Source of the DNA: Promethearchaeota archaeon
GTDB taxonomy: Archaea > Asgardarchaeota > Lokiarchaeia > Sigyniarchaeales > SOKP01
Reading direction: 5' to 3'
Assembly: GCA_016930515.1 (NCBI GenBank)
Contig: JAFGGO010000097.1
Coordinates: 1-12,880 of the forward strand
Length of the DNA: 12,880 nucleotides
Numbering within the stretch: the first letter of the stretch is position 1; every line of letters starts with the position of its first letter. The position numbers and the translations under genes were made by a program. Positions 1,018-4,159 of this stretch are shown here, piece after piece. Under the pieces are notes generated by a model. It was not told the DNA's origin. It worked only from the letters and a program-made list of their open reading frames with translations, and did no database searches.

Positions 1018-1061
1018 ATTGTGATATTTTTATTAATATTAGAATTATTCTCATATTTTTT
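1018..1061 (+). repeat. Diverged direct copy of 3844-3887 (distal fadH upstream region)
   Basis: Ungapped manual alignment gives 35/44 identities. The block is AT-rich, but it is collinear with the further homology blocks at 1328-1365 and 1389-1510. Confidence 0.6.
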
Positions 1062-1081
1062 TTTTAGTTAAGCAATTATTT

Positions 1082-1256
1082 TTAAATCCCATACAATAAT
1101 TCGTCGTCAGATTTATCCAAATCATACAGTGGATATTCTCGAGCATTATATAAGATTCTTTTTATTTTTTCAGAATTTCGTCTTTGTTAAAAAGCTCCTT
1201 CATATGTTCATTTGAAAATTTCAAACATTTTCAAAAATCTCTTCGCGGGAAAATAT
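1082..1256 (-). pseudogene. Remnant of a VapB-like antitoxin (5'-truncated, two frameshifts)
   Basis: Not in the ORF track. Restoring one A in each of two A-runs (T-runs at 1228-1231 and 1165-1170 on +) gives IFSREEIFEKCLKFSNEHMKELFNKDEILKKIKRILYNAREYPLYDLDKSDDELLYGI*. The S-x-DE-x-LYG terminus is typical of archaeal VapB-type antitoxins. Confidence 0.5.
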
Positions 1257-1327
1257 CGAGAAATAGAAATAAAATTTTTGCAAAACACGGGCTTTTTATT
1301 TGCGTAATATGAGTTAATATTCCTATT

Positions 1328-1510
1328 AAAATTATATCTATTACTTCTATGTTTAGCCTCATTTAAATGCATTTTATTCGAATCAATTGATATTCATTAT
1401 ATGAAAATGCTTAAATCGTTTTCCCTTTACCTGTCAATTCATCATATAGCAATCATTCAAACCATTCGGTATTCAAACACGAAATTTCGAAACCATTTTC
1501 TCCGTTAAAA
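1328..1510 (+). repeat. Repeat copy A of the fadH upstream region plus first ~11 codons
   Basis: 1328-1365 matches 3897-3934 (33/39 columns). 1389-1510 matches 2375-2498 and 4011-4135, with a 3-nt and a 1-nt deletion. The fadH ATG position reads ACG (1479-1481). Confidence 0.9.
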
Positions 1511-1551
1511 TTGTTTTAGACATTCTTAATTATATAAAATGCTCAATTATT

Positions 1552-1976
1552 CTATTTTTCTCTCTTTTCCATCAATTCTATAATATCCGTTGTTGTAAAA
1601 GTTTGAATTATTTCCTGCTGTTTTAAATGCTTGTCGTTCGACTATATTCCGTCGTTTTTTATCAATAAACCTAATGCGACGAATTGAGCGTCTTTCTCGT
1701 CGATCTTGCTCATTATCTCCATTGCGCATGGCAGTTTTTCGATATATTCTTCGAGAGGAACCAATTTTAAGTTTTCAAGTAAGAAATTCAAGAGTTTTAT
1801 TGTTTCTACTTCTTTTAAACCCGATTTTTGGACGATATACGGAATATATTTTTTTAATTCAATCATCACGATTTCTGGAACGAAGAAATCAAAGGACATA
1901 TTCAGGAGAATTTCCCTGGTTTTTGAATTTTTCAAGAGGCTTGAGATTAATATGTTCGTATCAATAATTATTTCAT
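1552..1976 (-). pseudogene. vapC: PIN-domain (VapC-like) toxin, inactivated
   Basis: Reconstructed as MK/IIIDTNILISSLL...PEIVMIELKKY...IDEKDAQFVALGL...GI*SNDKHLKQQEIIQTFTTTDIIELMEKREK. It has the PIN motifs DTN, E, D-x-x-D and WSND. One A is missing after ATG 1976 (ATG AAA TAA), and TAG replaces the conserved Trp at 1642-1644. Confidence 0.88.
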
Positions 1977-1979
1977 TTT

Positions 1980-2213
1980 TTAGAGGTTCAAGTATTTTTT
2001 GTGTTCTTGCCAGCTTTGCTTGGTAATTTCGTCACTGATTTCGGAAACATCATCTAATGTTAATTTACTTTCTGGAACTATTGAATCCGAAATTTCAATT
2101 TTTCGAATGTATTCTTCTAAAGCTGCTTGGGCAATCAATTCGAAATTAATCTCAGGATGCTTTTTCATTTTTTCTAATAAGGTGTCTGAAATAGTTAATT
2201 TAATTTCGGTCAT
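1980..2213 (-). CDS. Antitoxin, ribbon-helix-helix/VapB-like
   Basis: Intact 77-aa ORF with an N-terminal beta-strand/helix pattern (IKLTISDTLLEKMKKHPEIN) and an SKLT motif. It ends 3 nt before the PIN ATG. A TATA-like TATTTAAA lies ~30 nt upstream on the minus strand. Confidence 0.8.
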   Translation of the reverse strand: MTEIKLTISDTLLEKMKKHPEINFELIAQAALEEYIRKIEISDSIVPESKLTLDDVSEISDEITKQSWQEHKKYLNL

Positions 2214-2374
2214 GTTCTCAAATATATAAATTAAATCCTAATTTAAATAATTATTAATGATTAATGAATCTTAACCACGATAATCAATACCCTCTTGAAT
2301 TAGCTCTAATTCTATCAAGCAATCGATTTTGATTAATTCAAACCTTTTATGTTTATTCCTCGTTCAAAAATGTT

Positions 2375-2522
2375 TATTCATTATATGAAAATTCTTAAAT
2401 CGTTTTCCCCTTTATACCCATCAATTCATTGCTTCACTATCATTCAGACCATTTGGCATTCAAACACGAAATTTCTAAAACGATTTTCTCCGTTAAAACT
2501 CGGAAATATGGGCTTATCAAAT
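2375..2522 (+). repeat. Repeat copy B of the fadH leader plus first 19 codons
   Basis: 2385-2522 aligns ungapped to 4022-4159 at 115/138 identities. It translates TKFLKRFSPLKLGNMGLSN versus FadH MKFLKLFSPLKVGNMVLSN. The start codon reads ACG (2466-2468). Confidence 0.95.
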
Positions 2523-2681
2523 CACTATTAAAGCATTATTGACCTTGCAGTGGTAATATCTAAGTAATCTCATTATATGGGTCGAATTAATTTTAGAATC
2601 AAATAAATGTGCAATTAAACGCAATTAACTAGTGATTTTTACATAAAATTCATAAAGAACCCCTTTATTTTTCACGAGGTC

Positions 2682-2726
2682 GAAAAAATATAAATTATTG
2701 AATTTCCTAATGTTACACAGGTGAAA
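2682..2726 (+). promoter_or_regulatory. Putative BRE/TATA promoter and GGTGA RBS for the 2734-3371 operon
   Basis: GAAAAAATATAAA at 2682-2694; GGTGA at 2720-2724, 9 nt before ATG 2734. Confidence 0.5.
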
Positions 2727-2733
2727 GAAAAAA

Positions 2734-2979
2734 ATGACTACCATACCCGTGGAAAAAGAAAAATTAGCAGAACTCTTGGACTATAAATTGAAATTTCTTC
2801 ACGGAAAAATCAATAAGATCCTAACTAAATGGAATTACACGAATCCAGAACTTTTTTTAGCACACGCAAGAGATGGCACGATTGAGGAAGCAGAACTTGA
2901 CGCCATAACATTACGACAGTTGTTAAAAGAAAGAGAGGAATCTTATTTATTAAAGAGCAATTGGGATTTAAACGAATAA
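2734..2979 (+). CDS. Small helical protein, probable antitoxin partner of the DUF6516/TumE-like gene
   Basis: Intact 81-aa ORF with an RBS, directly upstream of the putative toxin. Function is inferred from size and position. Confidence 0.65.
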   Translation: MTTIPVEKEKLAELLDYKLKFLHGKINKILTKWNYTNPELFLAHARDGTIEEAELDAITLRQLLKEREESYLLKSNWDLNE

Positions 2980-3371
2980 ATCGTCCACGAGAATTTAATT
3001 TGTCCTTACACGAAAAAAAATTGATTATTGCCAAGCAACTGATAGAACAATGTCTCAAATCTTCAATTGAACGCTTGCTTTTTCAACCAGATCTTTCTCG
3101 AATAAAGATCCAATTAAGGAATGGCATTTTTATTTTCATTCAATATAATGATTTTGATGAATATGGTTATTCAATCGTATTTTCAAAAATTGAATTAGAT
3201 CGATGTCGATTTGATAATTACGATAATAGATGGGATGTTTCCACGAGACCACATCATTTTCACCCGCGATATAGAACGGAAGCTGTTTCAAGCAAGATGA
3301 TTGGTGAACCTGCGAAGGACATGCCTTATCTGTGTGACTTGATTATTTCAGGAAAAATCACGACGCTTTAA
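2961..3371 (+). CDS. DUF6516/TumE-like putative toxin (start may be TTG at 3000)
   Basis: Motif RFDNYD-x7-RPHHFH matches the R-x-DN...PHH-x-H signature of DUF6516/TumE family proteins. It forms a two-gene operon with 2734..2979. Confidence 0.75.
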   Translation: MGFKRINRPREFNLSLHEKKLIIAKQLIEQCLKSSIERLLFQPDLSRIKIQLRNGIFIFIQYNDFDEYGYSIVFSKIELDRCRFDNYDNRWDVSTRPHHFHPRYRTEAVSSKMIGEPAKDMPYLCDLIISGKITTL

Positions 3372-3397
3372 CTTGATTTTATAAGTAAAAGGGAAAT

Positions 3398-3843
3398 ATG
3401 ATCAAATATAATGTAGCATTGGGAATGAAAATGACTGAAGATGGTTCGAATTTAAAGATCCTTGCAAATTGAATAAAAAAATCGATAATTACATTACATT
3501 AAAGGAGAATAAGAAACGAGTCGTAAATGGACACTCTATCTTTTTCTTCAATAAGAACGACAGAATTAAAAATCCTAGATTTGATTACATGAGTCCTTTA
3601 TAATGAGAGTCGAATGTAGCAAGAAACGTGTCATGTATATCTTAAAGCAATTTAAATAATTATTTTTTTTTTGAAATGGTTGAAAGTTCAGAGATTGATG
3701 GTATTATGATAGAAGCAAGAGACAAAGAAGGGAATATTGATAGAAGACCTGTCTTGTTTACAGAAACAGAAATTGTAGGTATTGCAAGGAAATTCGGTGG
3801 TAATAAAATTATCTGGATGGAACTTGGAAGGTACAGGATCTTG
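3398..3843 (+). pseudogene. Decayed ORF of unknown function
   Basis: Frame 3469-3600 (LNKKIDNYITLKENKKRVVNGHSIFFFNKND...) is the same frame as ORF 3676 (MVESSEIDGIMIEARDKEG...), with stops at 3601, 3604 and 3643. Protein-like sequence ends where the repeated upstream block begins (3844). Confidence 0.35.
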
Positions 3844-3937
3844 ATTGTAATTATTTTATTAATATTCAAACAACCCTCATATTTTTTATTAAAGAAAAAA
3901 TTATATCATGACTTTAATGTTTAGTCTTCATTTATTT

Positions 3938-3993
3938 ATATCATTTCATTACTTAACAATCTCTCAGATTATTTGGAATTCAAAAACGAAATT
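3938..3993 (+). repeat. Repeat copy C, tandem partial duplicate of the fadH leader/start (117-bp offset)
   Basis: 46/56 ungapped identities to 4055-4110. The start position reads ACG (3986-3988). Confidence 0.88.
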
Positions 3994-4010
3994 ATTAGTC
4001 AAATTGAATC

Positions 4011-4159
4011 GATATTCAAAGATGAAAATTCTTAAATCATTTTCCACTTTATACATATCAATTCATTACTTAACAATCATTTAGACTATTTGGTATTCAA
4101 GCATGAAGTTTTTAAAACTATTTTCCCCGTTAAAAGTCGGGAACATGGTCCTATCGAAC
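4011..4159 (+). repeat. Native copy D (fadH leader and first codons), with an internal 81-bp-offset duplication of the start junction
   Basis: TATTCAAAGATGAAAATTCTTAAATCATTTTCC (4013-4045) resembles TATTCAAGCATGAAGTTTTTAAAACTATTTTCC (4094-4126). The same doublet is present in copies A and B. Confidence 0.85.

Follow-up and report, generated by a model that had tools for sequence, protein, structure and literature searches.

Here, we describe the region upstream of a fadH-like gene in a Promethearchaeota archaeon, which is located on a contig (C149) of 12,880 bp that was analyzed over its whole length and is called the window below. The contig belongs to a metagenome-assembled draft genome (G000) of 4.0 Mb in 190 contigs, with 35% G+C, a completeness of 94% and an estimated contamination of 5.3%. 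The domain architecture of the product of 4103-6127 is of the fadH (2,4-dienoyl-CoA reductase) type. Upstream of and at this gene, four directly oriented copies of its promoter and start are found, namely units A, B and C and the native unit (also called unit D). Between these units two real cargo blocks are found, insert 1 with 0.83 kb (1511-2343) and insert 2 with 1.32 kb (2522-3843), which lie on opposite strands and have each their own upstream region. Every unit is a composite of a pseudo-start (S1), followed by a segment X and then by the true start (S2). The features of the locus are listed in the order of their coordinates.

1018..1510, plus strand: unit A, outermost of the spare copies, with the upstream region and start of fadH in the blocks 1018-1064, 1328-1365 and 1385-1510.
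1065..1327, no strand: indel of 263 nt inside unit A; its flanking blocks lie 6 nt apart in the native region and it holds broken minus-strand frames.
1552..1977, minus strand: PIN_2-type toxin gene, now a pseudogene (PF10130, E 3.3e-16).
1980..2213, minus strand: putative antitoxin gene of 77 amino acids, an intact frame just upstream of the PIN gene, with a weak paralogue on contig C36.
2344..2521, plus strand: unit B, a spare copy with the layout S1-X-S2 that ends at about +57 (fadH codon 19-20).
2734..2979, plus strand: putative antitoxin gene of 81 amino acids, partner of the TumE-like gene; the pair is conserved as a unit.
3000..3371, plus strand: TumE-like (DUF6516) gene of 123 amino acids, apparently intact (PF20126, 24.1 bits versus a cut-off of 23.4).
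3372..3843, no strand: AT-rich non-coding or decayed tail of insert 2, with the start of an orphan open reading frame (3676-3843) that has no detectable relatives.
3844..3934, plus strand: blocks A0' and u, which form the upstream part of the native unit and recur as copies in unit A.
3935..4012, plus strand: unit C, a short old tandem copy of X and of the start over about 20-35 nt, likewise with ACG.
4013..4102, plus strand: native S1 (pseudo-start, 4022-4054) and X; homology with the sister species (G003) begins at 4048.
4103..6127, plus strand: fadH-like gene, intact, 674 amino acids, with old-yellow-enzyme and pyridine-nucleotide-disulphide oxidoreductase domains.

An earlier note on this DNA had claimed direct repeats of the fadH 5' end, and these are real and lie near the positions that it had assigned to them. 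In a blastn search of the whole genome the native region 4011-4170 gave three matches with E values from 7e-37 to 8e-11, i.e., to 2375-2521 (83% identity over 147 nt, E 7e-37), to 1389-1510 (79% over 126 nt, E 4e-21) and to 3931-3997 (81% over 67 nt, E 8e-11). The identity from unit to unit is 79-84% and the longest exact run common to any two units measures 17-18 nt. Unit A extends farther upstream with two blocks, 1018-1064 and 1328-1365, which are collinear with 3844-3890 and 3897-3934, respectively (z 6.3 and 7.0 against shuffles); taken by itself, the match of 1018-1064 is at noise level for the AT-rich DNA of this locus. Unit A copies the entire native stretch 3844-4135 with the exception of the short tandem unit C, carries ACG instead of ATG and has a 1-nt deletion in its coding part. 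Unit B has ACG for ATG as well, its frame is open from the ATG of S1 through S2, and it has diverged from the native start in the manner of a coding sequence. Unit C predates the split between units A and D. The copies differ in their ends on both sides: on the right they stop at about +20 (C), +33 (A) and about +57 (B) of fadH, and on the left at 3844/1018 versus about 2344. With ends that scatter in this manner, no fixed att core with uniform repeat ends is seen at the fadH units. On the other contigs of the assembly no significant copy of the fadH start region was found by blastn, and among 120 genomes of the family the repeat DNA matched significantly only the sister species' own fadH start. 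The repeat is local, as the earlier note had supposed, and by this distribution a miniature inverted-repeat transposable element or another dispersed repeat is ruled out.

The units are mosaic in their make-up. S1 is an older pseudo-start that begins ATGAAAATTCTTAAATC. It is identical at 31/33 nt between unit B and the native copy and absent from G003, and a 17-nt block within it is identical in B and the native copy, differs by one base in A and occurs genome-wide solely in these three units. X comprises about 48 nt, opens with the TATA-like TTTATAC at approximately 4049-4055 and is present in the sister species too, where the homology starts at the S1/X border; we infer that X is the fadH promoter region. 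For X the identity amounts to 81%, and S2 is the part that diverged most. Over nt 1-33 of S2 units A and B form one group (30/33 identical) and the native copy together with G003 forms the other (33/33). All three spare copies (A, B and C) have ACG where the native start has ATG, and they have further B-type states in common. In A and B the ATG of S1 is in frame with S2, and an allele starting at S1 could have borne the ACG harmlessly; alternatively, the ACG could have arisen on a common source.

The pattern of substitutions in unit B is that of another working fadH allele rather than that of a local relic. Between B and the working start 13 bases differ in 12 of the codons 2-20, with 8 codons changed synonymously and 4 non-synonymously. 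Random placement of the same mutation types yields a mean of 3.0 synonymous codons (P 0.002), and a plain model of the synonymous excess between B and the native copy gives P 0.0005. If these differences are polarized with G003, 9/13 fall on the side of B. Over 60 nt, the numbers of differences are 15 for B and G003, 14 for B and the native copy and 7 for the native copy and G003. As B is equally far from both and these are closer to each other, it represents an outgroup allele. Judged by its sequence, unit B is not a decayed local duplicate and was for a long time the start of a working fadH in another lineage. Since the spare copies derive from a different fadH allele than the working gene, DNA of a related lineage appears to have recombined here.

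The working start itself offers a second sign of exchange. G003 is the closest relative by fadH (81% protein identity), and the first 33 nt of the gene (4103-4135) are identical in G000 and G003 (L002 1150-1182), the whole genes being 76.5% identical. Among the 665 segments of that size this is the best one, and the identity stops exactly where unit A stops (+33). In the control pair G000-G002 (71% identical) the same segment matches at 25/33 and holds rank 128/335, i.e., this start is ordinary in rank, which means that the start is not universally frozen. Nevertheless these figures come from a small sample, and the identity may also result from selection on the initiation region. Base composition was also considered as a sign of foreign origin and is uninformative, with 29-31% GC in the inserts, 21-30% in the units, 35% in the genome and 46% in fadH. 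More exactly, fadH has 45.9% G+C (48% at third codon positions), and the orthologues of the relatives are richer in G+C than their flanks as well, to a lesser degree than in G000.

The cargo starts right at the truncated fadH starts, with joints at 1510/1511 and 2521/2522. Insert 1 (833 nt) contains the 77-residue gene and the PIN_2 gene only, both on the minus strand. The PIN frame is interrupted at 1642-1644, where an in-frame TAG stands for the Trp of GIWSNDKH, ahead of the acidic motif SNDKH, the last of the catalytic ones. No in-frame start precedes the first Asp motif, IIIDTN; the sole nearby ATG (1974-1976) is shifted by one base. We regard this toxin as a predicted dead relic of the PF10130 family and not as a working member. 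Of the antitoxin-PIN module that had been described in the earlier note, the PIN domain and a putative partner are confirmed, whereas the PIN gene is broken at both places. In insert 2 the TumE-like gene lies 20 nt behind the 81-residue gene. It has 28 relatives at 47-73% identity, many of them with PF20126 and one named TumE family by NCBI, and in all three contexts that were read a partner of 81-90 amino acids is found 18-20 nt upstream of the relative, among other toxin–antitoxin (TA) genes. With a score above the profile cut-off and a conserved partner, this putative TA pair belongs to the TumE (DUF6516) family and looks functional. A paralogous TumE pair exists on contig C66 of the same genome; its likeness to the pair at the fadH locus is confined to the coding part and common cassette ends were not detected. 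Family searches gave no hits for 1065-1327, for the 77- and 81-residue partners and for the open reading frame start at 3676-3843, and the cargo contains no LAGLIDADG, HNH or other homing nuclease domain.

The layout is that of insertions stacked next to a gene end, each of them leaving a spare copy of that end, and in this respect the earlier note was right. It had further assigned a TA-type module to every large interval. The antitoxin/PIN_2 pair and the TumE pair bear this out, while the supposed antitoxin remnant (1082-1256) proved to be part of the indel inside unit A. A decay that increases with the distance from fadH had been proposed as well; in fact the outer toxin is dead and the inner pair intact, but the gradient is not simply polar, as unit C is nearest to the gene and yet the shortest.

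Full-length fadH orthologues were present in 40/40 relatives searched. At 56 orthologous loci (18 genomic and 38 metagenomic, with 53-81% protein identity) no spare copies of the start exist, which means that the fadH start is not a conserved landing site, and the synteny comparison that had been recommended revealed no conserved hot spot. In G003 a single X-S2 copy is present, and spare copies are lacking within 1.1 kb. A frame of 34 codons (L002 899-1003), which lies about 150 nt before the fadH of G003, encodes a strongly hydrophobic peptide, MNTKQAVEIIMTVLGIIALFVMGF, and may be a small membrane peptide gene. The older gene order at genus level is membrane/zinc-ribbon protein, PAC2-like protein, fadH (e.g., G005 L021, G001 L005, G002 L132). 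In G000 (C10 3118-6004) and G003 (C552) the place of fadH behind the PAC2-like gene is taken by a minus-strand gene of 558 amino acids that both genomes share, and no fadH fragment is found after the PAC2-like gene on C10. From the shared gene it follows that the adjacency of PAC2 and fadH was broken before these two species split. The left flank of the window has no counterpart in any of the five genus genomes, same-species metagenome contigs were not found (the best relative is 66% identical), and in all members of the genus the contigs break at most about 2 kb before fadH. With the left flank and same-species contigs missing and the PAC2-fadH adjacency broken earlier, it is not possible to demonstrate an empty site. 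Elsewhere in the window (7163-9439, minus strand) a protein of 758 amino acids is encoded, in which a major facilitator superfamily domain covers only about the first 330 residues and is followed by a long non-transporter tail.

On balance we lean towards the view that the locus is a fossil stack, built by two insertions at least and probably by more, which occurred at the fadH promoter and start via homology-driven exchange with a related lineage. The route and the order of events that we infer would be the following. In each event a small addiction module would arrive along with a copied fadH promoter and the first 10-20 codons, or this segment would be duplicated in place, and the former 5' end and the older cargo would be pushed upstream and decay there. 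Donor DNA from a related lineage, with cargo beside its own fadH 5' end, would recombine with the resident gene, the shared fadH 5' sequence acting as homology arm. The old start of the resident gene, cut where the homology ends, would stay upstream with the older cargo. This might proceed by a single crossover of a circle (Campbell type) or by two-arm gene conversion, in which a linear piece is copied in and the old fragment provides the far arm. Both routes would lead to the same product, and the second has been proposed for the WHO elements of yeasts (Coughlan et al. 2020, PMC7282813). An integrase would not be needed. TA genes would be enriched in the cargo because addiction guards the insert from looping out between direct repeats of 150-290 nt, and the same logic of retention by addiction was proposed by the Kobayashi group for restriction-modification genes (PMC2853133). 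At present the units are too diverged to recombine readily (79-84% identity, exact runs of at most 18 nt), and fadH is today read from the innermost unit.

Several points weigh against a homology-driven stack. Neither an empty-site nor a variant genome is available, with the left flank missing in the genus and no same-species contig at hand. Sequences with 17-21% divergence and exact matches of 18 nt or less are poor substrates of homologous recombination, unless the divergence is largely of later date. The shared ACG fits a common element-borne mimic, and with it a family of site-specific elements, at least as well as it fits independent events, and the 33/33 identity with G003 could stem from selection on the translation start region. 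The synonymous-site test covers just 19 codons. Finally, there is no nuclease present that could drive the replacement of the gene end, and no donor is known.

It has to be considered whether a dedicated recombinase acted in trans, with cassettes that carry an attP mimic integrating serially at the fadH start in an integron-like manner or by tandem accretion. The common ACG and the other B-type S2 states of all three spare copies look as if they came from a shared element-borne site, and the 17-nt S1 block that is nearly identical in A, B and the native copy could be a crossover core. Insert 1 is a minimal self-contained TA module, and the array on C66 (see below) shows that sharp and uniform repeat ends do exist in this genome. 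We nevertheless consider this explanation unlikely. The earlier note had suggested the fadH start as attachment site, an idea that is not supported: the copy ends vary on both sides, an attC-like fold is lacking and such use is seen at none of the 56 orthologous loci. The homology reaches up to 290 nt and takes in functionless upstream DNA. A search for recombinases, which had been recommended too, revealed no recombinase domain encoded in the window. The sole tyrosine recombinase of the assembly (PF00589) is a 307-residue gene on C90, situated by a thioredoxin reductase and an H+-pyrophosphatase, and looks like an Xer-type enzyme in a housekeeping setting; two small serine-recombinase hits lie elsewhere (C118, C158), and the Y1 (HUH) transposase family is absent from the G000 assembly. 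The Xer-type enzyme, the serine-recombinase hits or some other enzyme may still have acted in trans. No element bearing this mimic was found in the 120 family genomes, and the S1 core is missing from the other array of the genome, so that each target would need its own enzyme. Single-stranded DNA folds of units A, B and D gave z-scores from -0.66 to +0.81 versus shuffles on both strands, only weak inverted repeats are found in the units, and Rfam has no match for them; an integron attC or a known RNA was ruled out on these grounds. The idea of a core common to the fadH array and the C66/C37 array was likewise abandoned, as the S1 17-mer is restricted to the three units.

Even less probable, in our opinion, is a purely local origin, in which unequal crossing-over, template switching during replication or break repair duplicated the fadH 5' region repeatedly in this lineage and unrelated illegitimate events placed the TA genes between the copies. 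Ordinary allelic recombination with a relative would later have exchanged the working gene or just its 5' end, so that the older copies now resemble another allele. A nested tandem duplication within the unit (S1 versus S2, and C beside the native copy) does indicate that the region is prone to duplication, a short conversion tract would account for the 33/33 identity with G003, and no mobility gene is present. However, two different TA modules start exactly at the joints of the copies, which makes independent arrival not parsimonious, and the 9/13 differences on the side of B, mostly synonymous, speak for B having been a working start for a long time. That fadH upstream variants of co-occurring strains were strung into one contig by the assembly is highly improbable. 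The genome is a metagenome draft of 190 contigs with 5.3% contamination, and the genus-wide contig breaks upstream of fadH might raise such a suspicion; yet the longest exact match between units is below the usual assembly k-mers, which renders repeat-induced misassembly unlikely. Moreover, both joints lie outside the repeated sequence, and at 16-21% divergence the units would neither collapse nor be cross-linked in the graph. The earlier note had already doubted an artefact, and the short exact runs confirm this.

The stack that is best explained, in our view, by homology-driven exchange resembles several known systems in part. Insertion with long target duplication is known from bacterial restriction-modification genes, mostly as single events, and was proven by an empty-site genome; no archaeal case passed the screen for it (Furuta, Abe and Kobayashi 2010, PMC2853133). 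Common to these insertions and the fadH locus are an addiction-type unit, the lack of a mobility gene and direct repeats of tens to hundreds of bp. These repeats duplicate the local target, have no further copy in the genome and in many cases overlap a gene end. Where that work asks for an insert below 20 kb without mobility genes and for unique direct repeats above 30 bp, the present inserts measure 0.83 and 1.32 kb and the repeats 120-290 nt. Different are the TA cargo, the stacking of events, the allele-like divergence of the copies and the missing empty site.

Tandem accretion of integrative elements and of CIMEs, their decayed remnants, has been reviewed (PMC5704250), and the ssrA islands of Dehalococcoides are described in PMC3146451. 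As in these systems, an intact gene stands at one end of the stack, older inserts decay, and the repeated units are copies of a gene end, here units A, B, C and D with the fadH promoter and start. Accretion systems have a known tyrosine or serine integrase and short fixed att cores, and they usually occupy the 3' ends of tRNA, tmRNA or protein genes. In contrast, no integrase is found for the fadH locus, its copy ends are variable, its inserts measure just 0.8-1.3 kb, and the targeted end is a 5' end including the promoter.

WHO elements, which replace the 3' end of FBA1 in Torulaspora and Lachancea yeasts (PMC7282813), are similar in that the end of a gene of essential type is replaced by an allele-like, largely synonymous variant, the old end and the cargo are pushed outward, and end and body of the gene differ in history; for fadH the sample behind these points is small. 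WHO elements, whose own endonuclease cleaves the sensitive allele, operate on a 3' end during diploid meiosis, whereas the fadH locus has no DNA endonuclease, carries TA cargo, belongs to an archaeal host and concerns a 5' end plus promoter. Chromosomal integrons have been reported in approximately 8% of Asgard genomes (Ghaly et al. 2022, PMC9668308). They share with the locus a row of small accessory genes rich in TA pairs and a recurring separator sequence. An attC site is defined as an imperfect palindrome of 57-141 nt at the cassette joints that folds as single-stranded DNA. At fadH there is no IntI and no attC-type folded palindrome, and the repeat is the start of the neighbouring gene; with neither IntI nor attC found, membership in the integrons fails on both defining features. 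No published description of such stacks in Asgard archaea, or of the pattern in archaea, was found.

Similar arrays are present elsewhere. A self-comparison of the genome revealed at least 16 direct copies of a unit of about 250 nt on C66 (10310-33582), continuing on C37 (1-2273). These units have sharp uniform ends and include a promoter with the beginning of a small frame on the minus strand (SIDYDSVMDKNLTLEEF), and between the copies ParE, PIN, TumE and DUF433-type TA pairs, among them the paralogous TumE pair, are found besides membrane-anchored proteins of 550-680 amino acids. The C66 unit contains a hairpin with compensatory changes, and the same 4-nt insertion occurs in 5/11 aligned copies. 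Directly before the first repeat of this array (C66 9005-10216, plus strand) lies the gene of a Cys-rich protein of 403 amino acids (P0001) with an HxH-like motif (INHHFHAIGFG), for which no Pfam or NCBIfam hit was obtained. In another member of Promethearchaeota (GCA_004524265.1, SDNF01000023.1; locus L134, 1380-5060) VapBC, PIN and TumE-type pairs are separated by a 122-nt direct repeat every approximately 955 nt; read on the minus strand, this repeat resembles the terminus of a small frame with a T-run behind it. Since the targets of the arrays are unrelated in sequence, a single site-specific enzyme cannot explain all of them, and the same architecture at unrelated targets argues for a general recombination route.

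Further direct repeats were noticed beside these arrays. At locus L135 (GCA_016839555.1, JAEOUA010000007.1) a direct duplication of about 500 nt (324-822 and 2247-2759, 92-95% identical) brackets a HepT/MNT pair; the same locus has a CRISPR array with 73-nt spacing (6549-6829), and repeat-like copies are present inside the duplicated segments. In G000 itself pairs of direct repeats of 80-200 nt, 79-90% identical, bracket accessory genes on four contigs: a 3.7-kb block with PIN-like and HNH-like genes (C76 62165-66020), an AbrB-PIN pair (C63 60-3100), a membrane protein (C189 19117-20477) and a metal ABC transporter operon (C22 880-5514). One repeat or both overlap a gene end in several of these pairs.

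We put forward only tentatively, and with considerable doubt, that Asgard archaea may in general gather selfish cassettes, mostly TA modules, at gene ends, each with a fresh copy of that end and without a classical integrase. Such a process might be triggered by breaks that are repaired from foreign DNA. The fadH stack would then be a small 5'-end example of it, and the same process would have built the array of about twenty cassettes on C66/C37 and would reshape the ends of housekeeping genes.

Taken alone, the fadH stack is a small and mostly dead relic, and its value is that of one data point and of a test bed for homology-driven versus enzyme-driven accretion. To the arrays described above it adds a 5'-end case with a measurable allele-type signature. 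If the proposed explanation is true, the locus records an integrase-free uptake of selfish genes in an archaeon close to the eukaryotic stem. The promoter and first codons of a housekeeping gene would have served as landing pad, and the start of this gene would have been swapped between lineages.

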